A stretch of DNA of 64,000 nt from an uncultured Verrucomicrobiae bacterium (GCA_963813025.1 CAWEXO010000013.1:512001-576000); one strand, 5' to 3'; shown: positions 7,925 through 45,835, counted from the stretch's first letter. The notes: generated from the letters alone by a model not told the origin. Made by a program: numbers and translations.

Positions 7925-8120
7925 TTTCGCTTCTTGGTTCGTCCTCTGCAGTCGACACAAAAGCCAGAAATTGATGGTCCGACGACTCGCCTAGCCGATA
8001 ATACGTCGTTTTCGTGAGTGCTCGCGGATGTATCGAATCGGGCGTCAATCTCCGCCTTCAATATCTCGCTCTACGATATAACTCAATCAGCCTGGTCCGA
8101 TCAGAAAAGCGGATCCTCTG

Positions 8121-18554: not shown

Positions 18555-19124
18555 CTATTTGTTTGTTAACTGCCCGGCATCAAGCAAGTAGGCATTATTC
18601 GCCTCACTGATAATCGCCACGGCTCTTTTCCGGCCTTTCCACCCCAAAATTCTCGGGTTTTTCGCGGTAAAAAACGTTGTGCTCAAGAAAAATTGTTCGA
18701 TTTCCTCGCGCAAACGTGTTGGCAACTCAGAAGCGCGTTCAAATTCTCCCAGACGATCGTGCCATCGGGGCATCACAATGACTCGGTCATTTCTTTCGCG
18801 TTTGCCTCCCTGATCGTCCTGGTCCATTTCGATGACGCCTAACGGCTGACAGGGGAGCAGGACTCCCGGATAAGTTGTCGCATCGTGGAGAATTAGCACA
18901 TCGAGCGGATCTCCGTCCGGAGCCCGGGTGCTTGGAATAAATCCCCAGTCAAATGGATAGGATAAGCCAAGCGATAAAGCATGCGAGACAGTAAAGACTG
19001 CGAGTGCGGGCTCGTACTTGAGTTTGACCATTGAGCCCTTCGGCGCTTCGACCACGGCATGCACCGATCCATCCTCGCCATAGGTTGGCAAGTTAGAAAG
19101 CAAATGAGGATCGGTATTTTTCAT
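18555..19124 (-). CDS. ppa: Inorganic pyrophosphatase, family I
   Basis: E.PKGS..KY, YPFDWGFIP and DGDPLD. Confidence 0.9.
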   Translation of the reverse strand: MKNTDPHLLSNLPTYGEDGSVHAVVEAPKGSMVKLKYEPALAVFTVSHALSLGLSYPFDWGFIPSTRAPDGDPLDVLILHDATTYPGVLLPCQPLGVIEMDQDDQGGKRERNDRVIVMPRWHDRLGEFERASELPTRLREEIEQFFLSTTFFTAKNPRILGWKGRKRAVAIISEANNAYLLDAGQLTNK

Positions 19125-19444
19125 CTTCGTTGGTCGTTGACCCCCTTTTCCGGTGTGAAGGGCAGTGGCACTCTGTAAACATCAGAATACCTCTTATTTA
19201 CTGTAATCAGCTGATACTCAAGATATTATAAGCGCACGACCTCAACGATTGAGGTTGGCGACTCATCTGGGGCTCGGCCGCCAGGATCTCCAGTTCCTCC
19301 CGCGCGGCGACAAGGCCTGCGCGCCGTAGCCGAGCGCAGCGAAGAATCGGCTCGCCTGATCTTTTTACCAGTACTTTCCCCGACCTCCATTGACTGGGAT
19401 AGGAACGATCTTCGAAGGATTGTTTTCCCGGCTTCTCCGTCCCA

Positions 19445-20506
19445 ATGCGAATTGTCATTTTCGGTCTTACGATCAGCTCCTCTTGGGGAAACGGGCATGC
19501 AACACTTTGGCGCGGATTGGGCCGAAGTCTGGCAAAGCGCGGCCACCAAATCACCTTTTTTGAAAAAGACATCCCATACTACGCGCAGACGCGGGACTTA
19601 CCGCACTGGTCGGATGGAGAGCTGATTCTTTATAAAGATTGGGAATCGGTTCTCGAGCAGGCGCGCCATCGCTTGGCCCGCGCGGACGTAGCGCTGATCA
19701 CGTCGTATTGTCCTGATGGAGTCGCCGCGGCCCGACTGCTGGCAGACGGCTACAAAGGCCTTAAAGTTTTTTATGACATGGACACCCCGGTGACTATGCA
19801 GCGCCTTCTTGAACAAGGATCAGTCGAGTACCTGCCGGCAAATGGGCTGCACGATTTCGATCTCGTCCTGAGCTTTACCGGTGGTAACATTCTGACGGCT
19901 TTAAAGGAACGTTTGGGTGCCGCTCATGTAGAGGTGCTCCATGGGCATGCTGATCCGGACTGTTATCACCGTGAGAAGCCGGCTGCGGCGTACGCCTGCG
20001 CGCTTTCATATCTCGGCACGTTTGCCATCGATCGACAACCCGCGTTCGAGAATTTGTTTGTGAGGCCGGCTGAACAGTTGCCCAGGCAGCGCTTTGTCAT
20101 AGGCGGAGCGCTTTATCCCGAAGTTTTTCCCTGGCGGCCGAATATTTTTTTCGTCCGGCACGTTCCTCCTTCGGGGCATGCCTGTTTTTTTAGCTCGTCA
20201 AAGTGCACGCTGAACATCACCCGGCGCTCCATGGCCGACTCAGGTTATTGTCCTTCGGGGCGAATCTTTGAAGCGGTCGCGTGCCGTACGGTAGTCATCA
20301 CCGATCGTTGGACTGGTTTGGAAACGTTTTTCGAGCCCGGCGGCGAAATCATCGTGGCGGAGACCCCGGAGGATGTTGTTGAGGCTTTGGCCTTGCCCGA
20401 CGAACAGATCGATCGCATCGCTGCTGCCGCTTACCGGCGCTTTCTAGCCCGGCACAGCTCGGACCAACGAGCCGCCGAACTTGAGCGTTTATTGCGCGCT
20501 GCTTGA
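19445..20506 (+). CDS. CgeB-like glycosyltransferase
   Basis: SSWGNGHAT, FYDMDTPVT, SYLGT and PSGRIFEA. Confidence 0.88.
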   Translation: MRIVIFGLTISSSWGNGHATLWRGLGRSLAKRGHQITFFEKDIPYYAQTRDLPHWSDGELILYKDWESVLEQARHRLARADVALITSYCPDGVAAARLLADGYKGLKVFYDMDTPVTMQRLLEQGSVEYLPANGLHDFDLVLSFTGGNILTALKERLGAAHVEVLHGHADPDCYHREKPAAAYACALSYLGTFAIDRQPAFENLFVRPAEQLPRQRFVIGGALYPEVFPWRPNIFFVRHVPPSGHACFFSSSKCTLNITRRSMADSGYCPSGRIFEAVACRTVVITDRWTGLETFFEPGGEIIVAETPEDVVEALALPDEQIDRIAAAAYRRFLARHSSDQRAAELERLLRAA

Positions 20507-20527
20507 ACCCGGAACACGGACTTATTT

Positions 20528-21298
20528 ATGTGGGGGATCATTCCTGCCGCCGGTGAAGGTAAACGGATTCAGCCGCTCGCCTTCTCCAAAGAACTCCTGC
20601 CCGTCGGCATTGGCAGAATGCCAGATCGGAACCGGCCTCGGGCCGTAAGCGATTTCATTGTCGAAAGGATGGTCCTGAGCGGGGCTTCAAAATTGTGTTT
20701 CGTCATTTCGCCTTTAAAGAGCGATATCCTGCGATATCACAGCGCCGGGTCAGACCAGGTGCACATCCTCTATGAGGTTCAGCCTCGTCCCCTTGGCCTC
20801 TGCGACGCTGTCTTCCGCCCGGAACCGCTTATTTCCGCGGACGAAGACGTTTTGATCGGGCTGCCCGATACAGTCTGGTTTCCAGTCGACGGTTTCAGCA
20901 AGCTGCCGGCCGATGCGTTTTCGCTGCTTTTGTTCCCCGTGAGTGCTCCTGAGCGATTCGACTCAGTCCAGCTGGGAAGTCGATCGCACGTGAAGGAAAT
21001 CCAGGTCAAAAGCCGGGAAGCGAAATCCAAATGGATTTGGGGTGCAATGAGGATGCCCGGACAAATTTTCAAAGAACTTTGTAATCTCTGGTACCGTCGA
21101 GACAGGAGGGACGAGTTTTTAGGGACCCTGATCAATGCGTTCATTGCCGAAGGCGGGGAAGTAATCGGTGTGAAGGCAGGCACATCTTACCTTGATGTCG
21201 GCAGCGTCGAAGGTTTCTACGCTGCTTGCCGCCGGTTAGGCCTTTCCGCTGCGACGACAATGGAGGGGAAGCCAGACCCCCGGACCGGAGCCATCTGA
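20528..21298 (+). CDS. Sugar-phosphate nucleotidyltransferase
   Basis: GIIPAAGEGKR..SKELLPV, Q..PLGL and GLPDT. Confidence 0.88.
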   Translation: MWGIIPAAGEGKRIQPLAFSKELLPVGIGRMPDRNRPRAVSDFIVERMVLSGASKLCFVISPLKSDILRYHSAGSDQVHILYEVQPRPLGLCDAVFRPEPLISADEDVLIGLPDTVWFPVDGFSKLPADAFSLLLFPVSAPERFDSVQLGSRSHVKEIQVKSREAKSKWIWGAMRMPGQIFKELCNLWYRRDRRDEFLGTLINAFIAEGGEVIGVKAGTSYLDVGSVEGFYAACRRLGLSAATTMEGKPDPRTGAI

Positions 21299-21310
21299 AT
21301 AAACATTGTC

Positions 21311-22165
21311 ATGCAGAGCACCAGATGGGAGATATTGCGGGTACTGGCGGGTAGGCCGGTGGAGAGACTCGTTATTGTCGCACCCCATCCCGACGATGAA
21401 GTCATTGGAGCAAGCTCATTTCTGCCGCTCCTCCGAGAAAGAGCTTTCGTCATCTATGTTACACAGGGAGCTCCCGGTTTCGGGCAAAACGATCGCAAAG
21501 TCTTGGCCACCACTCTCGCAGGGTCAAAGAGCGGCGCCCTGAAGAAACGAATCAGCTCGGCCAAATCGATTATTGATCCCAAGCACAATGCGATGATTCG
21601 CCGCCAGGAGGCTAAGGAGGTCCTCAGCTTTTGTGAAATCCCACTACATAACGCTTTTTGGCTGAATTTTTCCGATCAACGAGTCAGTTATGAGTTGGAT
21701 CGATTCGTCGCTGAGCTTGGCCGGGTTCTTTCGCACATTAAGCCGGACGCCATCTTGACGCCTCCCTACGAGGGTGGCCATCCGGACCACGATTCTGCTG
21801 CTCTGGGCGTCGCTTCGGTCTGTGCGCAGACAGGCGCGTGTCGTCGCGTGGAAATGCTTTCCTACCATAACCGCAATGGGAGGCTGGAGTTCGGTCGCTT
21901 TCTGGCCTCGGCAGGACCGACCCGAGAGCATCACATAATCCTGAGCGAAGAGGAGCGTTCGCGTAAAGCCGCGATGTTTTCCATCTACGCATCGCAGCGG
22001 GAGGTTCTGCGCAATTTTCCGATTAACGAAGAACGATTTCGGATCGCTCCCGACTACAATTTTCTGGAGCCCCCTCACTCGGGACCGCTGTATTATGATT
22101 TTTTCCATTGGGGGATCGATGGATCTCATTGGCGGGAACGAGCGCGCTCATTCCTGGGAAGATAA
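21311..22165 (+). CDS. PIG-L/LmbE family deacetylase
   Basis: APHPDDE, RRQEA, GHPDH and YASQ. Confidence 0.9.
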   Translation: MQSTRWEILRVLAGRPVERLVIVAPHPDDEVIGASSFLPLLRERAFVIYVTQGAPGFGQNDRKVLATTLAGSKSGALKKRISSAKSIIDPKHNAMIRRQEAKEVLSFCEIPLHNAFWLNFSDQRVSYELDRFVAELGRVLSHIKPDAILTPPYEGGHPDHDSAALGVASVCAQTGACRRVEMLSYHNRNGRLEFGRFLASAGPTREHHIILSEEERSRKAAMFSIYASQREVLRNFPINEERFRIAPDYNFLEPPHSGPLYYDFFHWGIDGSHWRERARSFLGR

Positions 22166-22177
22166 AGGATTCTTCCG

Positions 22178-23242
22178 ATGCCGCTTACCGTCCTGAGCGT
22201 CGCTTATCCATTCGCACCAGTCGGGCCGGGGGCGGTTGGCGGGGCGGAACAGATTCTCAGCCGGATTGATCGCGCTTTGGTCGCGCAGGGTCACGAATCT
22301 ATCGTCATCGCCCCGGAGAATTCGATGATCTGGGGAAAGCTGTTTCCCATTCCGTCGGTAAATGTTATGATTGATGACGCCGTACGGCACCACGTATACG
22401 CGAAAGTGCGAACAGTCCTGGCCGAAGCTCGCAAATTGTATCAACCATCTTTGGTTCATCTGCACGGCGTTGACTTTTATAAGTATCTACCGACCGAATC
22501 GATTCCAATTCTGGTTACCCTCCACCTGCCAATCAGTTTCTATCCGCGAGAAATATTCCGGATTCCGCGACGAAGCACTTTCTTACAGTGCGTATCAGAG
22601 TCGCAGCATCGCAACTGCCTTCCGTACTGCCAGGCCGGCGTGAGCGGTCCCAGTCTCTTGCCTCCAATTCCGAATGGCGTCCCGCCGATCCCACAACTGG
22701 AGAAGCCCTGCCCGAAGCACGAGTTTGTGCTCTGCCTGAGCCGCATCGCGCCCGAAAAAAATGTTCACGCGGCCATCGAGGCAGCCCAATGCGCCGATGT
22801 CGATCTGTTGATTGCGGGCCAGGTTTTCCCGTACGAGGCGCACCAACGCTATTTTGATGAGCAGATCAGGCCCCGATTGACTGATCGGTGCCGGTTTATC
22901 GGCCCGGTGAATGAACTCGCCAAATGGTCCTTGCTGGCGCGCGCCCGCTGTCTTCTCCAACCAAGCCTCGCGGAGGAAACCAGCTCATTGGTCGCGCTGG
23001 AGTCGCTTGCTGCCGGAACACCGGTTGTTGCGTTCCGCTCGGGAGCACTCCCGGAAATCGTGGAAGACAATCGCACGGGATTTTTGGTCAATAGCGTCCA
23101 GGAAATGGCCATGGCTATCTCGAAGTCCCCACATTTGCAGCGGGAAGATTGCCGCCATTCAGCTCGAACTCGCTTCTGCCTGAATCGTATGCTGGAGCGT
23201 TATTTTGCTGCTTATCGCGAAATCGCTTCGAGCAATGATTGA
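22178..23242 (+). CDS. Glycosyltransferase family 4
   Basis: GGAEQ, SRIAPEK and EETSSLVALESLAAGTPV (EX7E). Confidence 0.9.
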   Translation: MPLTVLSVAYPFAPVGPGAVGGAEQILSRIDRALVAQGHESIVIAPENSMIWGKLFPIPSVNVMIDDAVRHHVYAKVRTVLAEARKLYQPSLVHLHGVDFYKYLPTESIPILVTLHLPISFYPREIFRIPRRSTFLQCVSESQHRNCLPYCQAGVSGPSLLPPIPNGVPPIPQLEKPCPKHEFVLCLSRIAPEKNVHAAIEAAQCADVDLLIAGQVFPYEAHQRYFDEQIRPRLTDRCRFIGPVNELAKWSLLARARCLLQPSLAEETSSLVALESLAAGTPVVAFRSGALPEIVEDNRTGFLVNSVQEMAMAISKSPHLQREDCRHSARTRFCLNRMLERYFAAYREIASSND

Positions 23243-24260
23243 TGGGATGCATACCCCCTGCATTCAGAATTGCAGATCTTTGGTGGTCCACGAACTCGGC
23301 GGTTTCGAAGAGGTCGAGGCGCTCAAAGCTCCATGGCTCGAGCTTTGGCAGAAGTGTCCCGACGCGACGCCGTTCCAAACGCCGCATTGGCTAATACCGT
23401 TCTACCAACATTTCGCCGATTCCACGGCGACGATTGTGACTCTGTCTCTGGACGCAAATTTGGTCGGCATCCTTCCTCTCTATCGTTATGGAGAAGAAGG
23501 CGGAGACCGTTTTCTTCTGGCCGGTAGTGGCCTTTCCGATTATCTCGACGTGTTAGTGGCGCCAAAGATTGGATGTGTTCCCGCGATCCATTCGTGGATG
23601 GATCGAGTTGGGCACAGCCAGGTTGAGTTTCAGCAACTCCGATCAAACTCTGTCTTGGCACACCTACCCGCGCCTGCGGGCTGGCAACGTTTCGTTGGAC
23701 CGACCAACTTGTCGCCGCAGATTCTGGTGCCAGATGGGCAAAGTGACATCGCCGGCGTCATCCCGCCGACGATTCGGCGAGAACTCGAATATCTGGGAAG
23801 GCGCGCGGCTAAGCTTGGTCCGTTGACAATTCGCTGCTCTGAATCGGACACACTTTCCTGCGACATTGACTCACTCTTTACCCTGCATTCCAAACGTTGG
23901 CAGGCGCGAGGTCAAACCGGAGTATTCGCTTCCAAGCAGGCGCGCGATTTTTTTCACGCGGCCTGGCGAGAGCTCTTTAACCTCGGCCTTTTACGACTGA
24001 TGCACTTAGTCGTCGGAGATTGGGCTGTCGCTGCGCTCTGCGGATTCAGTTGTCGCGGGCACTTCTACTATTATATCGGGGGCTTCGATCCGGTCGCCGC
24101 CAAACTCAGCCCAGGCTCGCTGATTATCTGGCGGGCCTTGCAGGAAGCCCAACGGGAAGGTTGTGTCGTCTTCGATTTTCTTCGCGGCGGCGAATCTTAC
24201 AAGTACCGTTGGGGCGCGCGCGCTGAAAAAACGTTCTCCGTATTTTTTCGGCGCTGTTAA
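23235..24260 (+). CDS. GNAT family (CelD/BcsL-like) acyltransferase
   Basis: TPFQ..W, SDYLD, SPGSL and FDFLRG.E.YK..W. Confidence 0.88.
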   Translation: MIDGMHTPCIQNCRSLVVHELGGFEEVEALKAPWLELWQKCPDATPFQTPHWLIPFYQHFADSTATIVTLSLDANLVGILPLYRYGEEGGDRFLLAGSGLSDYLDVLVAPKIGCVPAIHSWMDRVGHSQVEFQQLRSNSVLAHLPAPAGWQRFVGPTNLSPQILVPDGQSDIAGVIPPTIRRELEYLGRRAAKLGPLTIRCSESDTLSCDIDSLFTLHSKRWQARGQTGVFASKQARDFFHAAWRELFNLGLLRLMHLVVGDWAVAALCGFSCRGHFYYYIGGFDPVAAKLSPGSLIIWRALQEAQREGCVVFDFLRGGESYKYRWGARAEKTFSVFFRRC

Positions 24261-24339
24261 GCACTATTCTTCAGCGACTCTTGAACCGGATGCCGGAGTT
24301 GCCACTATCCAAGACAGCTCCTCCTTCGCTAACTGATGA

Positions 24340-24605
24340 GGTCAAGCTCCCGCTTGGCCTCATTAGTGTTGGATCACATCTCAATCCGGACGAGCAGGAG
24401 CTCATCCCTACCGCTCCTCCTCCTTGACGCCGCTGCGACAGCGGCTCGCATAAAGAGATTGTCTCGCAAACTCCCCAGGTCGGTAGGGTCAAGCTCCCGC
24501 TTGACCTCCTTAGTGTTGGATCACATCTCGATCCGGACGAGCGGAGCTCATCCCTACCGCTCCTCCTCCTTGACGCCAATCCGAAAGCAGCTCGAATAAA
24601 GAGAC
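24340..24605. repeat. Two tandem copies (~147 bp period) of a GTAG-type palindromic element (family A)
   Basis: GGTCAAGCTCCCGCTTG..CCGGACGAGC.GGAGCTCATCCCTACC..TTGACGCC..ATAAAGAGA starts at 24340 and 24487; a third copy lies at 45901-46049. Confidence 0.9.
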
Positions 24606-24652
24606 AATCTCCAGCTAACTTTTCGCCCTATCTAGCAATTTCCATATCCCAT

Positions 24653-25588
24653 TTAGATGTGAGATGGTGCTGGAACATCGGATTCGATCGCGACGCCAGT
24701 GCCCCGAGCATAGCGACGCACCATTTCAACACAGAACTCCGCGTAGTCGTCCGGATTCCGCGGCGCGCTAGTGTGGTGGGGAACGATGCCAAGATGTTCC
24801 GGCGTAAAGCAGAAGGTAACGGTCAGATCAAAATCACGGAGCACATCCATTTGGCGATCGAACCAGTCAAAAGCACCAGGCCGAAAGCTATCTGCCCAAC
24901 TCAGTCCGGTGCGAAGATAATGAACCCCGAGATCTTTTAAGCGGCTGGCCGCATCTTCCAGCCGATGATCCTGGAAATGAAACCATTGGCAAATACCCAT
25001 TTCCGGGACGTGACGCGCGAATTCGCGGTAGGACGGTTTTTCCGTTCCGTCCTCTCGCACTAAACCCATGTAAAAATGACGATAATAGGAAGAGCCCTCC
25101 GATTCCCGATGACGGGTAGTAGCCGGCCATGCTTTCGGCAAATCGTAAAGGCTGTACCAGTGTATCCGCGGAACTCGTCCCTTCAACAATTCAGCAGTTC
25201 GTTGCAGACCGAATACCTGAACCTCATCTGCTCCGAAAGTGGAGGCGCCTACTTCCGTGATCCACACCGGCAGAGCGATCGCGGACTCGATCGAACTCAA
25301 GCGTTCCGGCCATTCATTGATCTGCCAGTGATTCCAGTCCAAGGGAAAACCATGGACACCATACGCATCCAGACAGCGCAAGAGGCCGAGCGCATCGAGG
25401 CGTCGGGCAAAGTTTGCATCAATCGGCGATGTGCCGCCTAACACTTGGAGAAGCGTTGGATTTTCACGGCGAACCGCCCCTGAGGCGCGTTTCGCCATCT
25501 CCGAGAATTGCCGCCACTCTGGATCAACGTCGAAATCCCAGTGCGACTTGTTGTTTGGCTCATTCCAAAATGTGACTGCTTCGACCAT
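24653..25588 (-). CDS. Clan GH-A-like glycoside hydrolase (beta-xylosidase-like)
   Basis: WNEPN acid/base motif, GVHGFP, WITEVG nucleophile motif and LRTGLSW. Confidence 0.8.
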   Translation of the reverse strand: MVEAVTFWNEPNNKSHWDFDVDPEWRQFSEMAKRASGAVRRENPTLLQVLGGTSPIDANFARRLDALGLLRCLDAYGVHGFPLDWNHWQINEWPERLSSIESAIALPVWITEVGASTFGADEVQVFGLQRTAELLKGRVPRIHWYSLYDLPKAWPATTRHRESEGSSYYRHFYMGLVREDGTEKPSYREFARHVPEMGICQWFHFQDHRLEDAASRLKDLGVHYLRTGLSWADSFRPGAFDWFDRQMDVLRDFDLTVTFCFTPEHLGIVPHHTSAPRNPDDYAEFCVEMVRRYARGTGVAIESDVPAPSHI

Positions 25589-25594
25589 CCTTCT

Positions 25595-26305
25595 TCAGTT
25601 TTTGTTTATCTGGCAGACGTAGACTTCGTCTTCGGGATGTTCCAGCACCTGGAACCCGGCGGAGCGAATCATCGCTTCCAGGCACGCCTGATTTGGAACC
25701 CACCAGTTGGTTGGATCGCCGGCATACTGCCTTTCCACGAAATACATTTTTGGAAACCCGGGCCGCGAGAAAATTTCAGTATCCCAGAACGAGTAATCCG
25801 CGTCGATTGGCTCAATCTTCGAACTGCCTCGCAGCATTGATTGTACCACAAGAAGATCGCGAGTGGCGTGTTCCCGAAGCAAGTCCAATGCTAAGAGAGG
25901 ATGGCGGAGATGATAGAGAACGCCAAGAAAGAGGACCAGATCGAACCGCTCGCCCAACTCGCTCACGTTGTAGACAGATATTTCCCGAAATTCCACGTCC
26001 AATCTCAGCGCTTTTCGCATGAACTCAGCTTGCCGCAGGTACGTCTGATCAGTATCGATACCAACAACGTGTTCCGCTCCTCTTTTCTTCATCTCGAAGG
26101 CGTAGAATCCCGCATTACATCCGATCTCCAGTACTGACTTGCCTTCCAGATTCTGGGGAATGGAGCCGCGGAAACGATTCCATTTCACCCGGGGATAGTC
26201 ACCGAGCGGATGATTCGGCGCCGTCTGTACGCCGCCGAGATCGAAGTTCTGGAACCACTCACCCAGCGACTGCACTTCCCGTTCGAGTGTTTGGTGATCA
26301 GACAT
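25595..26305 (-). CDS. SAM-dependent transferase, TIGR04290/DUF1698 (CmoB-like) type
   Basis: VLEIGCNAGFY, FLGVLYHLRHPL and DPTNWW.PN. Confidence 0.85.
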   Translation of the reverse strand: MSDHQTLEREVQSLGEWFQNFDLGGVQTAPNHPLGDYPRVKWNRFRGSIPQNLEGKSVLEIGCNAGFYAFEMKKRGAEHVVGIDTDQTYLRQAEFMRKALRLDVEFREISVYNVSELGERFDLVLFLGVLYHLRHPLLALDLLREHATRDLLVVQSMLRGSSKIEPIDADYSFWDTEIFSRPGFPKMYFVERQYAGDPTNWWVPNQACLEAMIRSAGFQVLEHPEDEVYVCQINKN

Positions 26306-26346
26306 ATGGATCGAGCACCAGCAGGAGTAAAGAACGAGTCTCGTTT

Positions 26347-27513
26347 CTATAAGTGCTTGCTGTTGCGTGCCCTGCACCCCTGTCCAGCAGAGCTCATTTC
26401 CTCGGATAGAGTATTCAGCTCGGAACTCTGTCCCGTCGCTTCGTTGTTATGAATGAAATCTTCGGTTAACCGTCTCGCTTCGTCATCGGTGAATTGGACT
26501 GGCGGAGATTTCATGAAATAACCGGCGGGGCCAATCAAGGGGCCTCCAATCCCTCGATCCAGAGCGAGTTTCGCGCAGCGAATCGCGTCGATGACTACCC
26601 CGGCTGAATTAGGCGAGTCCCAGACCTCCAGCTTGATTTCGCAAGAAATCGGCGAATCACCGAATCCACAGCCCTCCAGGCGAATGTGACAGAACTTGCG
26701 ATCTTCCAGCCATTCAACATAGTCGCTGGGCCCAACATGGATCGATGACTCCGGCATCTTGCGGCCGATCTGGCTGGTGACCGCGTTAGTTTTCGATATT
26801 TTCTTCGAGATCAGGCGATCCCGCTCCAGCATGTTCAGAAAATCGGTGTTTCCACCAAAGTTAAGTTGGTATGTGCGGTCGAGCCGAACGCCACGGCGGC
26901 GGAAAAGATCAACCATAAGCCGATGCACAATCGTCGCACCGACTTGCGATTTGATGTCATCGCCGACGATGGGAAGTCGTTTGCGGAGGAACAGACGCTG
27001 CCACTCCAAAGTCGATGCTAGAAATACCGGCATACAGTTTACCAAAGCGCAACCGGCCTCAAGACACTGCTCGGCATACCAGCGAACCGCTTTTTCCGAA
27101 CCGACCGGCAGATAACAAAGGGCAACCTCAGTGCCGCTTTCCCGAAGCATGGTTGCCACGTTAACCGGTGGACGCGAATCGATCGAAATCATCGGCTGCG
27201 TGAAACGGCCTACTCCGTCCAGCAAATTACCTTGCTGCACGATCACCTTGGTCTCCGCTACTTCGGAAAATCGGCGAGTGTTGTTCGGTGGTGCAAAGAT
27301 GGCCTGAGACAAATCCACCCCAACTTTGCGGCTATCGATATCGAAGGCCGCGCTAAATTCGATGTCCCGCGGCAGATACCCACCGAGGTCGGCATGCATT
27401 AGCCCAACAACTGCATCGCCTGCTGTGATTTCGCGATAATAACTGATCCCCTGCACCAGGGCCGAGGCGCAATTACCGACTCCGAAAATCGCTGTTCTTA
27501 TTTTCTTGTTCAT
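26347..27513 (-). CDS. ino1: Inositol-3-phosphate synthase
   Basis: [47 protein letters not shown] and WDSPNSAG. Confidence 0.95.
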
Positions 27514-27531
27514 GGTCAATTACGTTCTTTT

Positions 27532-28611
27532 CTACCGCCTCTTGCGGTGTTCTTTACTGACGAGGCGCTCAAGTTTTTGCACTCGGTGAATGGCCGTGTG
27601 TGCGCCGAGAACTCGGTGGCGAGCGCGAAGCGCCAGCGCCGCCCGCTCTGTTTCCGGAAATTCCTCCAGGATCTCTCGCAATTCCTGCGTATTCTGAGCC
27701 ACCAGGATCTCCTTTCCGGGCTCGAAGAATTCATCCATACCGTCCCATGGATCCGAAATAATCGCGGTGCCGCAGGCGGCCGCCTCAAAGAGCCGGGTGC
27801 TCGGCGAATATCCGTTGGTCGCCATCGCCCTCCTCGTGAGGTTGAGCGTGAATCGCTGACGACCATAAAAAGCCCGGTGATTTGCCGGCGCAACGTGTTC
27901 CAGGCGGGCAACATTTCGCGGCCAGCGGATTGTTGCCGGATACATCGGACCAGCGACGACGAAATTTCTGGTTGGCATCGCGCGGGCCGTGCAATTCAGC
28001 AAGGTTTCCAACTTCGGCTGACGTTCTGCGCTATAGGTCCCGAGATAGCCCAGCTCCCAATCGAAGTGACTTGGACAAGGAAAATGAACTTCTGGGTCAA
28101 CTGTACACCAGAAAGAAATCGGATTCTGTACGCGATACCGCTTGGCGAGCTTGTCCAGGACGGCGCCCCCGGCGAATGAAAAATAGTAGTCGAATTCCGG
28201 CAAGAGCTCGGCCGAGATGTATTCCTCATCGCCCGCCTCGAGTTTCTCGACGGTCACCGGAGTGTCGAGATCGTAAAAGATCCGAACAGCTTGTGCAGCA
28301 TTGGTCAGAAGCCAGCGGGCCACCTCTACGCCTTGCGGAACAAACGACCCGAGAATGACACAATCGGCGATGCGCATCTCGTCGGTATAACGATCTCGAA
28401 GTTCCGTGAGGTCCTGATAAAGGTGCACGGAGCCAAGTTCGTGACCAGCAAGATAATCCCGGAAAGGTCTGTACCACAAAGTATCGCGTTCCAGAAATAG
28501 AACGCGATGTCCCCGGCGGGTGAGAGCACGGGCAAGTGCCCGATAACTGACGGCATGTCCGTTCCCCCACGATGACGTGATTGATAAACCGCAGATAATT
28601 ACCTTCATCAA
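27532..28611 (-). CDS. CgeB-like glycosyltransferase
   Basis: SSWGNGHA, FYDLDTPVT, GYLGTYS and SPSTRLFEAAACG. Confidence 0.88.
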   Translation of the reverse strand: MMKVIICGLSITSSWGNGHAVSYRALARALTRRGHRVLFLERDTLWYRPFRDYLAGHELGSVHLYQDLTELRDRYTDEMRIADCVILGSFVPQGVEVARWLLTNAAQAVRIFYDLDTPVTVEKLEAGDEEYISAELLPEFDYYFSFAGGAVLDKLAKRYRVQNPISFWCTVDPEVHFPCPSHFDWELGYLGTYSAERQPKLETLLNCTARAMPTRNFVVAGPMYPATIRWPRNVARLEHVAPANHRAFYGRQRFTLNLTRRAMATNGYSPSTRLFEAAACGTAIISDPWDGMDEFFEPGKEILVAQNTQELREILEEFPETERAALALRARHRVLGAHTAIHRVQKLERLVSKEHRKRR

Positions 28612-29678
28612 CTGGATGCGAAAGCAAAGATCGACTCAAACTGTGCTGCGCGCTTCTGGTAGGTATGGTCTCGGAGACACCGCCGGCGGCCTGCCGCCCC
28701 AATTCTGCGAGCTCGCGCCAAGGTAAGTTCGCGTGCGATTTTCACAACATCCTCGCCATTCTCGGCCACCAGGATCTCCCTGCCCGGTTCGAAGAAATCG
28801 GCAATACCGGTCCAAGAGTCCGTGATCAGGCAAGCGCCCGTTCCGGTCGCTTCGAATACGCGGGTCGCGGGCGAAAAACCATAATCCGCCATGCTGCTTC
28901 GGCAGATATTCAGCACGGCCAATGCGCTGCAGTAGAAGCTATTGTGGTCGCGTGTCCCGAGGTGTCCAATATAATTTACGTTGCCAGGAATCGATTTGTC
29001 GCCCCAACCATTGCCGGCCAGAAGAAAACGTCGATTGGGCAAAGCTTTCGCCGGCTTGAGAAAGAACTCTTCCACTCGCATCTCCCGGTCGGGCAAGCGA
29101 TTGCCTAAAAAACTCATGTCCGCCTGGTAAGCTGGTTTAGCCTGTGCGGGAAAATGTGTCGACGGATCCAGGCCGTTGTAGATTGGATAACATTCTTTGG
29201 CACCGAACGCCTTATAACCGGTGATGACCGGATCTCCTCCCCCGTAGGTTAAAATCAGATCAAACTGCGGAACCAACTTGCGAAAGGGATCTTGCTGGTT
29301 GTCGCGCAAGCGATCCAGGGTCGAAGGCGCGTCTACGTCCCAGAAAGCAACCAGAAGGGAGCTTCTCTTTGCCTGGATCACTGCCTGTTCCAAATATTCA
29401 TCGAGAGCGCCCACCCCGCTCGTCTTAATCAATAAGTCAGAGGCGGAAGCTTCTTCGATCAGACGATCTACTTCCTCGGGGATGGGTCGGTAAATGACGA
29501 CTTTCGCCCATTCCGGCGGCTCAATGTCAACATGCGCGTGTCGATCGTAAGCCGTCGGTTCATAAAACGTGATGTCATGCCCGTTTAGATGGAGAGCTTT
29601 CACCATCCCGCGGTAATAGGTCGCTGCTCCATTCCAGTAGGAGGAAAGAATGCTAGAGCCAAAAATCGAAATTCTCAT
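28608..29678 (-). CDS. CgeB-like glycosyltransferase
   Basis: SSYWNGAATYYRG, FWDVDAP, FLGNRLPDRE and SPATRVFEA. Confidence 0.88.
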   Translation of the reverse strand: MRISIFGSSILSSYWNGAATYYRGMVKALHLNGHDITFYEPTAYDRHAHVDIEPPEWAKVVIYRPIPEEVDRLIEEASASDLLIKTSGVGALDEYLEQAVIQAKRSSLLVAFWDVDAPSTLDRLRDNQQDPFRKLVPQFDLILTYGGGDPVITGYKAFGAKECYPIYNGLDPSTHFPAQAKPAYQADMSFLGNRLPDREMRVEEFFLKPAKALPNRRFLLAGNGWGDKSIPGNVNYIGHLGTRDHNSFYCSALAVLNICRSSMADYGFSPATRVFEATGTGACLITDSWTGIADFFEPGREILVAENGEDVVKIARELTLARARRIGAAGRRRCLRDHTYQKRAAQFESIFAFASS

Positions 29679-30805
29679 GCGAGCGACGCCATGATGGGAG
29701 CTACTTCTGTTTTCTGACACATCGCCGCATATAACTCAGCGTATCGTTTGCACATTCGTTCCATGCTAAAACCCAATGCGCGACGGCGAGCTCGCTCCGC
29801 CAGTTTTCGCAGAGCGATTTTGTCCGCCGAAAGGCGGTTAATCGCCGTTGACCATTCATCTTTGTTGTTCGCTTCGACAAAAATCGCCGCGTTATTCCAA
29901 ATCTCTCTTAGCGAGGGCAGATCGCTCAGGACGAGCGCGCAACGGCAAAGAGCGGCCTCGAGGATGGCCAGGCCAAAAGGTTCGTAGAGAACCGGCGCTG
30001 CATATATCGCCGCTTGACTAAGAATTTCCAGCACCGCGGAAGGCACGAGACGACCGAGGACACGCAATGACTTCGCGGTGCGTCCGGATCGGTCGGGTCC
30101 ATCATGTGGTCCAATAACGACAATCGGCCAGTTGATCTGGGAGGAAATCTTCTCCAGAAGCCCGATTCCTTTCGCTTCGTCCCAGAACCTCCCGACCGAG
30201 ACAATCTCCGGCACCTTGGTTGTTCTGACAGCGCTGCGACAGGAACGGCCATTTGGAATCACGGATCCCTGACCGCTCCACCCATAGTGCTGCCGGAGAG
30301 AGTGAAGCATCGCGCCGGAAGGCGTCACGACCGCGGTGGCCGCAGATAATCCATTGCTCACTCTCCGACGATACTCGTTGTATTTGCCGGGCGCCGGCTC
30401 GCCTTTCACCGCTTGCCACCAGGAAAGGATACACGAATGACCGGCAGCCAGGGTAGGTCGCTGCCAATCGGCTGCCGCATAGCTGTATCCGTTGAAGTGC
30501 AGGAGTGCGGCGTCGATACTCTCAGCCAGATCTCGAAGCCATTCGATGGCGGCTTCGACATCCGTCCAGGGATCCTCCATCCATTCAAGTTTGAACGAGC
30601 CGACCGTATGCCTGATTTGCTCGGCTTCCAGCTCACCCCTTTGTGCCGGGCTTGGCTCGGGGCCAAGAATTGCCAGATGCACTTCAAAACCATGTTCTCG
30701 TAGCCCACGCGCAAGATCCAGAGCGTAGGTCCAGATCCCTCCAACGCAGTCGCAGGTCATCAAGATCCGGTTCCTTCCTGACGTATTGTTCAAGCGATCA
30801 GGCAT
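29675..30805 (-). CDS. Glycosyltransferase family 4
   Basis: D.VGGIWTY, GRFWDEAK and YEPFGLAILEA. Confidence 0.9.
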   Translation of the reverse strand: MPDRLNNTSGRNRILMTCDCVGGIWTYALDLARGLREHGFEVHLAILGPEPSPAQRGELEAEQIRHTVGSFKLEWMEDPWTDVEAAIEWLRDLAESIDAALLHFNGYSYAAADWQRPTLAAGHSCILSWWQAVKGEPAPGKYNEYRRRVSNGLSAATAVVTPSGAMLHSLRQHYGWSGQGSVIPNGRSCRSAVRTTKVPEIVSVGRFWDEAKGIGLLEKISSQINWPIVVIGPHDGPDRSGRTAKSLRVLGRLVPSAVLEILSQAAIYAAPVLYEPFGLAILEAALCRCALVLSDLPSLREIWNNAAIFVEANNKDEWSTAINRLSADKIALRKLAERARRRALGFSMERMCKRYAELYAAMCQKTEVAPIMASLA

Positions 30806-30831
30806 GCTCCTCCGCGCCGCGAATGGCGATT

Positions 30832-31950
30832 TCAGGCTGACAGTCCTCGGCTCATCAACTCATGACAAGCTTGCTGGACAAGGTCTTCCGCAGATTGTGC
30901 TTCGAGCCAGCTCACCATTTCTTTCAACCCTGCCTCCAAAGAAAAACGGGGTTTGAACCCTAGAATCCGGCGGCTTCGAGCAATGTCGGCGTAACAGTGG
31001 CGGATATCCCCCACTCGGTAACGACCAGTTATTTCCGGTTCGAGATTCTCACGACCAAGGAAGCGTGACATCTCGCGGGCCAGTTGTCCGATCGTATGAT
31101 GTTTGCCGCTGCCAATGTTAAACACACTTCCGCTGGAATCCGTACTTTCCAGGGCCAATCGGCATGCCAGCGCGACGTCTTTGACATAGACAAAATCGCG
31201 TCTCTGCCGACCGTCTTCGTTCACAAGGGGGGACCGATTATTCAGGATTCGAGAGGAAAAGATGGCCAATACGCCGGTATATGGATTGGACAACGCTTGC
31301 CGGGTTCCGTATACATTGAAGAAGCGTAATCCGATGGTCGGAACTCCATAGACCGGACCCGTCGACAAACAAAGGCGCTCCTGATAGTACTTGGAAAGAG
31401 CGTACACAGAAGGAACAGACGGGCTCTTTGTCTCCGGTGTAGGCATCGGCTCCAATTGCTCCCCGTTGGGGCCGCGCAGATCCCATTCGCGCCGTTTCAG
31501 TTGATCGAGCTTTCGTTCGGCTAAACCGTAGATTTCTCCGGTGCTGCTGCGGTAAAGACCTTCGCCGTACACACTCATGCTCGAAGCGACGATCAATTTG
31601 GCGACGGGTCGCCTGGCCAGCAATTCGAGCAGCCTTGCCGTGCCTAAACAATTAGCGTCTGAGTAACTCGCAATCTGGTACATGCTTTGCCCGACACCGA
31701 CCGACGCCGCCAGATGAAAGACAGCGTCTACCCCTTCCAAAGCGCGAGCTAGCAGTCTTTCGTCCCGGATATCGCCTACCATCAGTTCGACATCATCGTT
31801 CAAATAAGCCGGCCGTCCTCGCCCGCTGCCGTGCACTTGTGGCAGCAGCGAATCGATCGCCCGCACCCGGTATCCCTGGACTAACAATTCGTCCGCTAGA
31901 TGAGAACCGATGAATCCCGCACCGCCAGTGATCAAAATCGTACTGAACAT
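30832..31950 (-). CDS. NAD-dependent nucleotide-sugar epimerase/dehydratase
   Basis: TGGAGFIGSH, SSMSVYG, YALSK, RFFNVYG and RDFV. Confidence 0.93.
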   Translation of the reverse strand: MFSTILITGGAGFIGSHLADELLVQGYRVRAIDSLLPQVHGSGRGRPAYLNDDVELMVGDIRDERLLARALEGVDAVFHLAASVGVGQSMYQIASYSDANCLGTARLLELLARRPVAKLIVASSMSVYGEGLYRSSTGEIYGLAERKLDQLKRREWDLRGPNGEQLEPMPTPETKSPSVPSVYALSKYYQERLCLSTGPVYGVPTIGLRFFNVYGTRQALSNPYTGVLAIFSSRILNNRSPLVNEDGRQRRDFVYVKDVALACRLALESTDSSGSVFNIGSGKHHTIGQLAREMSRFLGRENLEPEITGRYRVGDIRHCYADIARSRRILGFKPRFSLEAGLKEMVSWLEAQSAEDLVQQACHELMSRGLSA

Positions 31951-32230
31951 GACAAAAAATGTGAAAAAGAGGTTGCCCCTTTTGACCGGAACGCAGAGGT
32001 TTCGTTGATCTTTGTACAAACGTTTGTCAGGGAAACACCTGAGTAGTCCGTCAGGAGGAAAGGCGTCGGCAGCATTGTCCGGCTGCTCCGCGCTGAGGCC
32101 GCCCTCCACGCGCGATGAGATTTGTCGCGGTCAAGGACCTACTTGAGACGCCCATCACGATCCCGAGCGGCGAATAAAGATTAACAACCGGAAAAGAGTC
32201 CGGCTAGAACCTCAACGGCTATATTAACCC

Positions 32231-32401
32231 ATGTTACGTTACGCGGTTATTTTTCTCGTAATTGCAATCATTGCAGCATTCTTCGGTTTCAGCGGAGTCG
32301 CCGGAACCGCGGCTTGGATCGCTCAGGTGTTATTCGTTGTATTTCTGATTCTTTTTATCGCCTCTTTCTTTTTTCGAGGAGCGCCACCACCCGCGGGATG
32401 A
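32231..32401 (+). CDS. DUF1328 family small membrane protein (not in ORF track)
   Basis: Own translation, 56 aa: [56 protein letters not shown]. Confidence 0.92.
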
Positions 32402-32472
32402 AAACCGGCCGGGCCGAGGATCTTATTTCGAAATGCTGACCTGAACCGGGTCCGCAACGTTCCTATCTTCAC

Positions 32473-33462
32473 ATGCTAGCTGCTTGCTTGGTGGAACCGC
32501 GCCGTTTTGAGTGGCGCGAGGCTCCAAACCCGGTTCCTGGACCGAATGAGGTGGTGGTCAAGATTGAGGGTTGCGGCATCTGTTCATCCAATCTGGGTCC
32601 ATGGAAGGGCGCACCATGGTTTACCTATCCGTTTCCTTTGGGCGCTCCCGGACACGAGGCTTTCGGTGTGGTAACGGCCACCGGTTCGGCCGTTCAGAAA
32701 GTCGTATCCGGTGACCGCGTGGCCAGTTTGTCCCAGAACGCCTTTTCCCAATATTGCCTGTGCAGCGCGGATGATGCGCTTGTCCTCCCCCCAGATCTCA
32801 AACGAAAGACGTTTCTTGGCGAACCGCTGGCTTGCGCGGTCAACATCTTTAACCGATCCGGCATCGGTGATGGACATACAGTAGCGATTGTTGGAATCGG
32901 CTTTCTCGGTGCGCTTCTTGTGCAATTGGCCGTCCGCACCGGCGCTAAAGTGATCGCGGCGGCCCGGCGTGAAGAAGCCTTGGATCTTGCCGCCCGGCTG
33001 GGCGCCCAAGAACGTGCCGATTTTTCTGATCTCTGGTCTGGTGTTGCCGCCGTCCGGAAGCTCACTGACGATCGGGGCTGCGAGGTCGTGATCGAGGCGA
33101 CCGGAGCGCAAGCCGGACTGGACTTCGCCTCTGAGATCGCGGGCGAACGAGGCAGATTAATCATCGCCGGCTATCATCAAGACGGACCTCGGACGATCAA
33201 TCTCCAGTCTTGGAACTGGCGGGGCCTCGATGTGATCAACGCGCACGAAAGAGATCCCGCCGTCTACCGTTCAGGTATGCGCGAAGCCCTCAAGCGCGTT
33301 CTCGATGGATCCTTAGGTGGGGAAGATCTAATTACTCATCGTTTTCCAGGAGAGCACATCAATGCTGCTTTTTCCGAGGCCGAGATGCGGAAACCCGGAT
33401 TCCTGAAAGCAGTCCTTTTAGTCAGTTCCGACCTGCTGACAGTAGACAGCGAGGCCGCTTGA
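32473..33462 (+). CDS. Zinc-binding (MDR) sugar/polyol dehydrogenase
   Basis: CGICSS, GHE, EPLAC and GIGFLG; lacks the structural-Zn Cys lobe. Confidence 0.9.
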   Translation: MLAACLVEPRRFEWREAPNPVPGPNEVVVKIEGCGICSSNLGPWKGAPWFTYPFPLGAPGHEAFGVVTATGSAVQKVVSGDRVASLSQNAFSQYCLCSADDALVLPPDLKRKTFLGEPLACAVNIFNRSGIGDGHTVAIVGIGFLGALLVQLAVRTGAKVIAAARREEALDLAARLGAQERADFSDLWSGVAAVRKLTDDRGCEVVIEATGAQAGLDFASEIAGERGRLIIAGYHQDGPRTINLQSWNWRGLDVINAHERDPAVYRSGMREALKRVLDGSLGGEDLITHRFPGEHINAAFSEAEMRKPGFLKAVLLVSSDLLTVDSEAA

Positions 33463-33533
33463 CTCGGAAGCCACGCCACCCCTTGCTGCCTAACGCAAAA
33501 TAATTCGTTCGTTCGAGGCGCGGCCCCGCTCGC

Positions 33534-34607
33534 GTGAACATCGCATTTTTCATTCACTCGCTCATCTCTGACTGGAATCACGGGAACGCGCATTTTCTTC
33601 GGGGAATTTGTTCGGAGTTGATTGCCCGAGGGCATTTTCTGAAGATTTATGAACCCGCCGACGCCTGGAGCGTTGTTCAACTGATTGAATCGGAAGGTCG
33701 CTCGCGCTTAAGCGATTTTCAGCGTGCCTATCCGCATCTCCACAGTATCCGGTACGGCACAATTACGCCGGAGGATGCGTTGCGAGACATTGATGTGGCG
33801 ATCGTTCACGAATGGAATGAAGCGGGACTCATTAATTCTCTCGGTCGCTATCGTCGGGAGCACAGCAGCCCAATCTTGTTTTTCCACGACACGCATCATC
33901 GCGCAGTGTCGGACCCCGATTTTTTTGAAAGGCTGGACCTGTCCGGATTCGATGGCGTGCTCGCCTATGGCGAAGCTCTGGCCAACGTATACCGGGACCG
34001 AGGCGAGCGCGTTTGGGTCTGGCACGAAGCCGCGGATGTGCGCATTTTTTATCCTCGCCCATTTAGCGGGACTAAGCGCGACCTGATCTGGATTGGTAAT
34101 TGGGGCGATGAGGAAAGAACGGAAGAAATCACCGAGTTTTTCTTGAAACCAGTGCAAGAACTTGGTCTCGATGCCGTAGTTTTTGGCGTCCGCTATCCAG
34201 TGGAAGCCCAGGCACGTCTGGCAAAAGCCGGGATTCATTATGGCGGCTGGCTACCCAACTACGAGGTGCCTCTCCAGTTTTCCCGGTTCAAATGTACGGT
34301 CCATATTCCACGTCGACCCTACGTCAGCCGACTTTCGGGCATTCCCACGATTCGCCCGTTTGAGGCTCTCGCTTGCGGGATACCTCTCATCTCTGCTCCC
34401 TGGGACGACACCGAAGGGCTGTTCGAGCCGGGACGTGATTTTCTGATAGCCGAGACCGGTGCGGCGATGGTGAAGCATCTGTCCGACGTGCTGGAAAAAA
34501 CCGAATTGACGGCATCCCTTGCCCAGAACGGCCTACGGACCGTCCGGGCGAAGCACACCTGCGGACATCGAGTAGACGAGCTCCTGAAAATCCTGGGCGA
34601 CGTGTAG
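33534..34607 (+). CDS. CgeB-like glycosyltransferase
   Basis: [27 protein letters not shown] and [12 protein letters not shown]. Confidence 0.88.
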
Positions 34608-34999
34608 AGCGGTTGATTTGCTGGCGTACTGAAGGCGATTCCGCGATGCTTCAGCAGAACTGCTTGCTTGGCGGCTGCCAACGTCCCCGAATGCCAAAGA
34701 GCGTTGCCGAGGTTTGTTCCCAGGTTGATTCCGGAAAGAACAAGATCAGCTCCTTTCCAAATTTCAATACCGAGCGCAACGCAATCGGCAGGTGTCCCAT
34801 TCACCCGATATGCTTCAAACCCGAGGAGCGGAGTAGCTTTGAACCGAAGCGGCCGGCTCGATGTAATTGCGTGGCCCATCGAGGATTGCTCGATATCCGG
34901 AGCGACGATACGCACGTCGCCAAATCCAGTGGCTACTTCGGCGAGAGCTTTAATTCCCGGGCTGTAAATGCCGTCATCGTTTGTAATGAGAATGCGCAT
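34608..34999 (-). pseudogene. surE: 3'-truncated SurE nucleotidase
   Basis: TNDDG, VAP, GTPADC, SGIN.G.N and SGT.AAA. Similarity ends at about aa 125, after which the frame runs antisense through the neighbouring gene to 34319. Confidence 0.8.
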
Positions 35000-39671: not shown

Positions 39672-39697
39672 GGTATGTGTTGTTCGATCGTTGCTGA

Positions 39698-43081: not shown

Positions 43082-43089
43082 TCAGCCGT

Positions 43090-45778: not shown

Positions 45779-45835
45779 AGCAAGGTGGACCTTAGGTAAA
45801 TGAGATGAAGAGACCGTTTCGCAGGATTGCCCGGT

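Follow-up and report, generated by a model that had tools for sequence, protein, structure and literature searches.

A rearranged copy of the TIGR04290-marked glycosyltransferase cassette, with a myo-inositol-1-phosphate synthase gene, in an uncultured Verrucomicrobiae bacterium

Gene cassettes marked by the S-adenosylmethionine (SAM)-dependent methyltransferase family TIGR04290 (meth_Rta_06860) and the radical SAM family TIGR04295 (B12_rSAM_oligo) are catalogued yet uncharacterized; we take them to be the "rhizo-twelve system," a name that database output did not confirm. Here we describe a rearranged, trimmed copy of this widespread cassette at positions 18555 to 34999 of a 64,000-nucleotide stretch (the window) from an uncultured Verrucomicrobiae bacterium (GCA_963813025.1, CAWEXO010000013.1:512001-576000; assembly G000, 80% complete). 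An earlier note, made from this DNA alone, had proposed an uncharacterized inositol-linked glycoconjugate pathway; no described product was indeed found, but the gene set already has the family models named above. Open reading frame (ORF) listing and Pfam and NCBIfam scans recovered every gene that the note had named, including four CgeB-like glycosyltransferases (cgeB1 to cgeB4), two GT4 glycosyltransferases (gt4a and gt4b), a nucleotidyltransferase (ntp), a nucleotide (NDP)-sugar epimerase (epi), a Zn dehydrogenase (adh), a PIG-L deacetylase (pigL), a GNAT (gnat), the marker methyltransferase (mt), a glycoside hydrolase (GH)-like barrel (gh), and a myo-inositol-1-phosphate synthase (MIPS; ino1).

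The plant ononitol/pinitol and galactinol/raffinose pathways, which belong to drought and desiccation, combine MIPS, a phosphatase, a methyltransferase, a dehydrogenase pair, a glycosyltransferase, and a glycosidase-fold enzyme. Among bacterial enzymes, Tll1591 is a glucosylsucrose synthase with UDP-glucose and sucrose as substrates, and salt-stressed cyanobacteria have yielded glucosylsucroses, which are soluble oligosaccharides, on extraction (PMC9909042). For the cassette itself, no paper giving a product or phenotype was found, most subscription papers and bioRxiv supplements lying outside the searchable text, and it is not described in the accessible parts of PMC6599016, PMC3164672, PMC6159551, PMC12542648, and PMC13326640. 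The name "rhizo-twelve" and the identifiers TIGR04290, TIGR04295, and Rta_06860 do not occur in searchable paper text, where CgeB and inositol are paired in unrelated papers only, and six SMb locus tags of Sinorhizobium meliloti are absent from the searchable main text of papers.

Ino1 and the cassette across genomes

A scan of species representatives gave no fewer than 568 marker relatives; the 80 best were retained, a sample biased to close matches. The 80 loci reach up to 10 kb on each side (43 are full length), and gene presence was scored by an identity threshold to the window proteins. The window genes recur among them at the frequencies given in Table 1, together with genes for a histidine phosphatase (55 loci), a TIGR04295 radical SAM enzyme (25 loci), and a Gfo/Idh/MocA oxidoreductase (gfo; 13 loci); all 14 window enzyme genes occur together in one locus, L053, and cgeB1 was found with ntp in 55 of 55 loci. 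Record titles of the marker relatives name Verrucomicrobiota, Pseudomonadota, Acidobacteriota, Bacteroidota, Armatimonadota, and others, and the marker also matches 132 plasmid records. Its spread is patchy: even samples from the class, phyla, and order of four chosen centers gave 7 of 251, 2 of 151, 2 of 121, and 2 of 251 genomes, each count including the center. Around the window genome, mt exceeds the TIGR04290 cut-off in 12 of 41 genomes searched, all inside its family.

In 46 of the 80 loci an ino1 gene is found no more than 10 kb from the methyltransferase gene, and in 35 of these 46 a histidine phosphatase gene follows directly 3' of it. Among the 34 loci without a nearby ino1, nine genomes carry a cassette-type ino1 by cassette genes elsewhere, and three carry only one of another clade. 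In a tree of 72 Ino1 rows (a quick tree built without an actinobacterial outgroup), 60 form a cassette clade (SH-aLRT 98), and the window protein groups with rows from Verrucomicrobiota. Fifty-nine of the 60 clade rows adjoin cassette genes, 58 of them labelled as cassette and one lying beside gt4a and gnat. One cassette Ino1 (L119) was placed outside the clade, which suggests a second recruitment into the cassette. Other alphaproteobacterial ino1 genes lie in unrelated contexts (nine inspected). The survey of homologous clusters thus found ino1 conserved beside them in several phyla, in a clade of its own. The window gene is single copy in the 80%-complete assembly (one tblastn match), and its product has the conserved MIPS motifs of an active-type Ino1.

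The row that does not adjoin cassette genes (L120, G048:C42:178948-180036) is a cassette-clade ino1 interrupted by an internal stop; about 55 kb around it contain no cassette gene, and it adjoins a nucleotidyltransferase gene and a Stealth-like ORF (labels from reading the translations).

The TIGR04295 radical SAM gene was never found beside adh or gfo in any fetched locus, and the usual position of both is between the epimerase genes and gt4b. Because they exclude each other and occupy like positions, the two may represent two solutions to one step. In the window genome the best TIGR04295 score is 22.7 against a cut-off of 400, and the window copy represents the dehydrogenase variant rather than the strict radical SAM form. 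In other loci adh is paired with gfo; its best NCBIfam match is the scyllo-inosose dehydrogenase IolM, below threshold (92.8 against 450). The window copy is without the phosphatase, gfo, the radical SAM gene, and the extra epimerases; for the cassette histidine phosphatase, tblastn gave no match at 1e-8 in the window genome, which has two other PF00300 genes elsewhere.

Further genes travel with the cassette. A protein called GT9-like from its motif (it has no Pfam or NCBIfam match) and a DUF1003 protein accompany it in 21 of the 80 loci (e.g., L012) and adjoin it in the sister genome G001, of the same genus; in the window genome their genes sit on another contig (G000:C8:195100-196726). A 587-aa cassette-associated protein (L050:11674-13437; SMb20248), absent from the window, has no family match; Atlas comparison showed a fold that is in part kinase/choline-kinase-like (TM about 0.4), and some relatives are HAD fused. 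A phosphopentomutase (DeoB-like) gene lies inside the cassette in 15 of the 80 loci (L043 to L046 and other Bradyrhizobium-type loci), hinting at a pentose building block.

Stress induction, enzymes, and candidate product

In S. meliloti 1021, 14 cassette genes lie at pSymB 242490-257890, and the window mt, ino1, gh, adh, epi, gt4b, and cgeB2 to cgeB4 share 34 to 66% identity with their orthologues in this species. All 14 genes, SMb20238 to SMb20251, increased on overexpression of RpoE2, the general stress sigma factor, with log2 fold changes of 0.78 to 2.96, including 0.78 for the methyltransferase, 2.96 for the phosphatase, 2.24 for ino1, and 1.84 for the GH (PMC6180224, Data Set S1). Since 320 genes rose in that experiment, the induction of the cassette may be indirect.

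Taking this together with the genomic survey, we propose, with a probability of roughly 0.5, that under general stress the cassette directs cytoplasmic synthesis of a small, soluble, methylated oligosaccharide, which in most carriers is started on myo-inositol. The proposal follows from the single Ino1 clade and its presence near or elsewhere beside cassette genes, from the phosphatase that follows ino1, from RpoE2 induction of the S. meliloti genes including ino1, and from the soluble character of the enzymes, the closest solved relative of gt4a being a maker of soluble stress oligosaccharides. The recurrence of the same gene set across phyla also counts in its favor, as does the finding of no membrane enzyme or exporter among the recurrent neighbors examined.

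Under this proposal, Ino1 would convert glucose-6-phosphate to inositol-phosphate, and a phosphatase would free the inositol; elsewhere this may be the histidine phosphatase encoded right after ino1, for which a housekeeping phosphatase would stand in in the window genome. The epimerase and the RmlA-like transferase would provide NDP-sugars, and the GT4 and CgeB-like GT-B enzymes would attach sugars stepwise, probably as retaining enzymes forming alpha-links. The TIGR04290 enzyme would methylate a hydroxyl, and the Zn dehydrogenase (with its Gfo partner elsewhere), or the radical SAM enzyme in other lineages, would alter one stereocenter or oxidation state. The accessory trio of GT4, PIG-L, and GNAT could attach and re-acylate a further sugar, and the permuted GH39-like barrel could trim, remodel, or recycle the product, which would likely serve as a protective solute against desiccation, osmotic stress, or starvation.

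The cgeB1 model (pLDDT 96.9) has a GT4-like GT-B fold and matches sucrose-phosphate synthase (SPS; Z 29.2, rmsd 3.7, 334 aligned) in a tie with PimA, BshA, and MshA (Z 29.2 to 28.4, rmsd 3.1 to 3.7, 324 to 334 aligned), and the best PDB profile matches of gt4b, PimA (E 3e-20) and GlgM (E 2e-19), are likewise not discriminating. For the nucleotidyltransferase, the earlier note had suggested an assay with inositol-phosphate and CTP. The enzyme is RmlA-like, not an inositol-phosphate cytidylyltransferase (IPCT): its top 21 PDB profile matches are all glucose-1-phosphate thymidylyltransferases (best E 2.2e-14), and no IPCT is among the 32 matches. A role for ntp in making NDP-inositol for cgeB1 was also considered. 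The cgeB1/ntp pair was found in 27 of 32 loci with ino1 against 4 of 11 without (p=0.005); after kin were collapsed (Bradyrhizobium, Microvirga, and a group of four kin loci, leaving 27 of 43 loci), the figures were 15 of 19 against 4 of 8 (p=0.18), and the idea was dropped.

The methyltransferase had been called CmoB-like. It scores 84.8 on the CmoB model (cut-off 209) and passes TIGR04290. A DNA- or tRNA-modifying role, suggested by the CmoB likeness and by a T4 alpha-glucosyltransferase match (Z 26.5), was set aside, as those matches rank below small-molecule glycosyltransferases and the role has no other support.

The GH-A hydrolase of the earlier note is a PslG/GH39-like (beta/alpha)8 barrel with both catalytic glutamates, and it is circularly permuted. 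It has no Pfam or NCBIfam match; residues 4 to 192 correspond to PslG 133 to 327 and residues 200 to 232 to PslG 25 to 57 (E 0.023 by single sequence, 3.4e-7 by profile). Against the canonical-order paralogue of Rhizobium etli, residues 2 to 184 match 118 to 298 (E 6e-23) and residues 184 to 295 match 3 to 116 (E 7e-13). E10 (WNEP) and E112 are invariant in 46 sequences and align with the catalytic motifs of PslG (Glu after strand 4 and Glu on strand 7). Foldseek, which aligns in sequence order and is blind to permutation, matched the model (pLDDT 88.8) to generic TIM barrels (TM at most 0.52), with no PslG or GH39. These alignments identify gh as a natural circular permutation at the sequence level, and a literature search found no report of a permuted GH-A barrel bearing on the cassette. 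A canonical-order GH39-like domain replaces the permuted one in an ino1-less lineage (L027:8446-10485; L031, L042, L110, L112, L113, and L116); in R. etli it forms a fusion with an NDP-sugar epimerase, and both GH forms are present in two loci.

Several observations weigh against our proposal. The modeled CgeB fold supports glycosyl transfer and points to no acceptor. The S. meliloti cassette was equated with SMb20238 to SMb20251 by gene order, strand, and annotation, and stress induction is known for that species only. No ino1 match was found in 22 of the 80 cassette genomes, and a further three have one of an unrelated clade only (sets assigned by hand, many of the genomes being incomplete metagenome-assembled genomes). 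In the even sample at class level, 25 of 251 genomes have ino1 and 7 have the cassette; of these seven, three carry ino1 at most about 3 kb from the marker and four have none. After kin were collapsed, no partner was significantly tied to ino1 (histidine phosphatase, p=0.065; cgeB1, p=0.18), and the histidine phosphatase also occurs without ino1, in 8 of 11 full-length loci. The window copy may be partly degraded, since it lacks the phosphatase, the Gfo partner, and a second epimerase, and no detected product was found in the searchable literature. From the clade, adjacency, and absence counts together, ino1 is a long-standing and dedicated, yet dispensable, member of the cassette; inositol may not be obligatory, though ino1 is conserved beside cassettes.

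The strongest alternative takes these absences at face value: the core (epimerases, gt4b, three CgeB-like enzymes, methyltransferase, and GH) would use an acceptor other than inositol to build an oligosaccharide or glycan in the cytoplasm, Ino1 and the phosphatase being a co-regulated accessory that gives free inositol or an optional decoration. This is possible, if on balance rather unlikely. R. etli p42b and the same four alphaproteobacterial genomes keep the core with no ino1 nearby, their canonical-order GH being fused to or adjoining an epimerase and the permuted GH missing, and the four lack any ino1 match, as do 22 of the 80 genomes; on the other side stands a dedicated Ino1 clade, which 55 of 80 cases from several phyla keep within the operon or next to it. 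Rhizobia are able to import inositol, which could account for loss of ino1.

A second alternative, that the product is the head group of a glycolipid or a surface or protein-linked glycan whose lipid carrier, ligase, and export would be encoded elsewhere, appears unlikely. Six glycosyltransferases with NDP-sugar enzymes do resemble a surface-glycan locus, CgeB of Bacillus acts in the spore crust, PslG, the nearest solved GH, comes from an exopolysaccharide (EPS) pathway, and PimA heads the PDB matches of gt4b. Ramlibacter tataouinensis, namesake of the TIGR04290 model, also lists a phosphatidylinositol lipid class (PMC3164672, accessible part). Yet no enzyme of the cluster is transmembrane, and neither a flippase, polymerase, priming transferase, nor acyltransferase recurs in the listed neighbor clusters. 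The cluster has no phosphatidylinositol(-phosphate) synthase, phosphatidyltransferase, or acyltransferase, and the only PF01066 (CDP-alcohol phosphotransferase) gene found in the 80%-complete window genome passes the pgsA model. With no second PF01066 gene there and ntp being RmlA-like rather than an IPCT, a di-myo-inositol-phosphate pathway finds no match either. Of the inositol-oligosaccharide or glycolipid that had been envisaged, the oligosaccharide agrees with the enzyme families and ino1 conservation, and the glycolipid is not supported, for want of a phosphatidyltransferase or acyltransferase in the cassette.

Clusters for spectinomycin and hygromycin A hold an enzyme set similar to that seen here (MIPS, phosphatase, Gfo and Zn dehydrogenases, RmlA, methyltransferase, radical SAM), and EvdMO1 is among the PDB matches of mt (E 3.3e-9). 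A secreted cyclitol glycoside of the aminocyclitol or orthosomycin kind is nonetheless very improbable: no aminotransferase, exporter, or resistance gene recurs among the neighbors, and expression is tied to a general stress sigma factor.

The earlier note had seen in Ino1, GT4, PIG-L, and GNAT the enzyme logic of mycothiol synthesis and in GT4 and PIG-L the start of glycosylphosphatidylinositol (GPI) synthesis; neither reading is supported. The closest PDB match of gt4a is Tll1591 (E 2.6e-37 by single sequence, 2.5e-59 by profile), with pterin glucosyltransferases also close, as against E 3e-11 for MshA chains of Corynebacterium glutamicum; on the MshA model the two GT4s score 37.5 (gt4a) and 26.1 (cut-off 462.5). 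The deacetylase has weak BshB1/B2 matches only, no MshB model being listed, and gnat has no MshD match, no PDB profile match, and a weak TIGR03019 match. In line with the note, no MshC-type ligase was found: the best score in the 80%-complete assembly is sub-threshold (217.5 against 485.1), on another contig, and probably belongs to CysRS. The full trio occurs in 11 of 55 ino1-bearing cases, and gt4a with gnat in 9 of 32 full-length loci with ino1 against 3 of 11 without, so that the trio is an accessory not associated with ino1. The metal motifs of PIG-L are intact in 17 to 18 of 18 orthologues, and an N-acetyl sugar is therefore probably handled in this module. A mycothiol-like thiol or GlcN-inositol conjugate, for which the FemAB-like GNAT would have to replace MshC and MshD, is the least credible product, even though all four superfamilies are present and 13 of 17 loci with gt4a and gnat carry a cassette ino1, given the loose trio, a GT4 that is not MshA-like, the missing MshC and MshD, and a sister locus without the GNAT.

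Layout of the locus and neighboring genes

The three adjacent units that had been described are borne out by strand and spacing, and co-transcription within each is presumed. Block 1 (cgeB1-ntp-pigL-gt4a-gnat; 19445-24260, plus strand) has gaps of 21, 12, 12, and -38 bp; block 2 (epi-gt4b-cgeB3-cgeB2-ino1-mt-gh; 31950-24653, minus strand) has gaps of 26, -4, -1, 18, 41, and 6 bp, so that ino1 starts 18 bp downstream of cgeB2, as had been reported; and block 3 (adh-cgeB4; 32473-34607, plus strand) has a gap of 71 bp. The GC content is flat across the window (0.53 to 0.57), and a sigma-70 promoter scan gave hits at or below chance (6 against 9.6).

The enzymes look cytoplasmic, in agreement with the earlier note. 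In a hydropathy scan with Nramp as a positive control, 15 of 16 proteins at 18555-34999, including the pyrophosphatase and the SurE fragment, have no 19-residue stretch above Kyte-Doolittle 1.9, and the sole exception is the NAD-binding motif of the dehydrogenase; no multi-pass membrane protein was found there. The absence of a priming transferase, flippase (Wzx), polymerase (Wzy), or ABC-type exporter also holds, both in this region and among recurrent neighbors of the related loci, and the region does not match an O-antigen or EPS locus of Wzx/Wzy or ABC type.

Table 1. Features of the window and their occurrence in the 80 related loci
Feature	Description	Position	Strand	Loci (of 80)	Basis or remark
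	Deleted thiamine-pyrophosphate enzyme-like ORF	7430-7960	-		Pyruvate oxidase-like; label from translation
	TIR-domain membrane protein	13024-14112	-		Missing from collinear G001 stretch
	Inorganic pyrophosphatase family	18555-19124	-	1	PF00719; also adjoins the cassette in G001
cgeB1	CgeB-like GT-B glycosyltransferase	19445-20506	+	55	PF13524 E 1.8e-36
ntp	RmlA-like sugar-1-phosphate nucleotidyltransferase	20528-21298	+	59	PDB profile search
pigL	PIG-L family deacetylase, accessory trio	21311-22165	+	17	PF02585 E 3.4e-19; HPDDE and HPDH intact
gt4a	GT4, glucosylsucrose-synthase/pterin-glucosyltransferase type, accessory trio	22178-23242	+	19	PDB ranking
gnat	Acetyltransf_6/FemAB-like GNAT, accessory trio	23205-24260	+	17	PF13480 E 3.3e-33; Atlas 0.97; start uncertain, TTG 23205 or ATG ~23235
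	Two tandem ~146-bp repeat copies	24340-24611			Intergenic repeat family
gh	Circularly permuted PslG/GH39-like (beta/alpha)8 barrel	24653-25588	-	73	Strand order 4-8, 1-3; signal peptide absent
mt	TIGR04290 SAM-dependent methyltransferase, cassette marker	25595-26305	-		356.8 bits, cut-off 300
ino1	Myo-inositol-1-phosphate synthase	26347-27513	-	46	PF01658; TIGR03450 481.4 bits, actinobacterial equivalog cut-off 638
cgeB2	CgeB-like glycosyltransferase, core	27532-28608	-	51	PF13524
cgeB3	CgeB-like glycosyltransferase, core	28608-29678	-	49	PF13524
gt4b	GT4 glycosyltransferase, core	29675-30805	-	48	PF13439/PF00534
epi	NAD-dependent NDP-sugar epimerase/dehydratase, core	30832-31950	-		PF01370 E 1.3e-51; ATG at 31950
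	DUF1328 small membrane protein, 56 aa	32231-32401	+		PF07043 E 1.2e-15
adh	Zn-dependent dehydrogenase	32473-33462	+	16	PF00107/PF08240
cgeB4	CgeB-like glycosyltransferase, core	33534-34607	+	49	PF13524
	SurE N-terminal fragment, ~130 codons	34608-34999	-		SurE models match residues 10-138 only
	Alternative complex III and cytochrome c oxidase operon	37369-49998	-		Collinear in G001
	Animal-type heme peroxidase	51979-53760	-		

The sister genome G001 is collinear over the cluster (75 to 86% nucleotide identity), without SurE and without the GNAT there. The flanking pyrophosphatase and truncated SurE are present, as the note had it, but neither belongs to the cassette: the pyrophosphatase, absent from nearly all related loci, is a local neighbor. 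The SurE fragment, which spans model positions 1 to about 135 and abuts the cgeB4 stop on the opposite strand, has no N-terminal match in any fetched related locus. Apparent SurE matches in related loci proved to be antisense shadows of cgeB genes. One soil DNA run has short contigs nearly identical to parts of the region, and none of those listed spans the SurE junction.

The stress-island setting also stood up, through neighboring genes for DUF892, DUF4142, DUF72, PfpI, and topoisomerase IB, which are general-stress genes. Together with DUF1328, a protein absent from the note's list and probably a stress-regulon passenger, these neighbors are the sole stress pointer for the window itself; a search of sequencing runs listed no RNA sequencing run carrying the region.

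The repeat between gnat and gh belongs to an abundant intergenic family with well over 50 blastn places, on contigs C1, C2, C4, C5, C8, C9, and C11 to C15 of the window genome; it was not seen in the fetched loci of other genomes and looks like a miniature inverted-repeat transposable element (MITE) or a repetitive extragenic palindromic (REP) element. The oxidase operon adjoins the cassette, and oxidase genes also border the R. etli cassette. Upstream, the ORF resembling an internally deleted thiamine-pyrophosphate enzyme may be a sign of local gene decay.

Comparison with known systems

Hundreds of bacteria from soil or associated with plants carry the cassette, and the identity of its compound could reveal a new desiccation protectant relevant to inoculant survival. 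It would also give activities to CgeB-like glycosyltransferases, to TIGR04290 and TIGR04295, and to a naturally permuted GH-A barrel. The window copy itself contributes mainly range and one variant gene set. It shares with the TIGR04290/TIGR04295 cassette the marker, the three core CgeB-like enzymes, the GT4, the epimerase, the permuted GH, the ino1 clade, and the cgeB1-ntp pair. It differs in having no TIGR04295, histidine phosphatase, or Gfo gene and one epimerase instead of two or three, in the added PIG-L/GT4/GNAT trio, in its split into three units, and in the placement of the GT9-like and DUF1003 genes on another contig. The S. meliloti genes include the phosphatase, Gfo, the kinase-like 587-aa protein, and three epimerases and are without cgeB1/ntp and the trio.

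Of the individual enzymes, gh resembles PslG (GH39, Pseudomonas aeruginosa) in both catalytic glutamate motifs (WNEP and ITE) and in its barrel elements, but it is permuted, is without an export signal, and has no EPS export genes nearby. Tll1591 (TeGSS; PDB 7FG9, 7FGA, and 8X3Q) is the closest solved relative of gt4a, and its product is a soluble stress oligosaccharide; however, the cassette has no sucrose synthesis genes, and the sucrose-contacting Trp10 and Tyr18 are Tyr and Val in gt4a. The mycothiol pathway (Ino1, MshA, MshA2, MshB, MshC, and MshD) has its MIPS, GT4, PIG-L, and GNAT superfamilies represented in the window, whereas no window orthologue of that pathway reaches its model cut-off.

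A bolder version of our proposal, which we consider doubtful, is that the cassette is a bacterial counterpart of the plant seed desiccation pathway, assembled independently in several soil phyla. Ino1 and the phosphatase would be followed by O-methylation by the TIGR04290 enzyme, pinitol-like epimerization by the dehydrogenase pair or the radical SAM enzyme, glycosylation by CgeB, and transfer by the permuted GH as a transglycosidase with a glycosyl-inositol donor. If true, bacteria would have a new class of protective solute, and CgeB-family glycosyltransferases their first defined activity outside spores. The comparison with the plant methyl-inositol and galactosyl-cyclitol pathways is an analogy: the enzyme sets are alike, the glycosyltransferase families differ, and no homology is implied.

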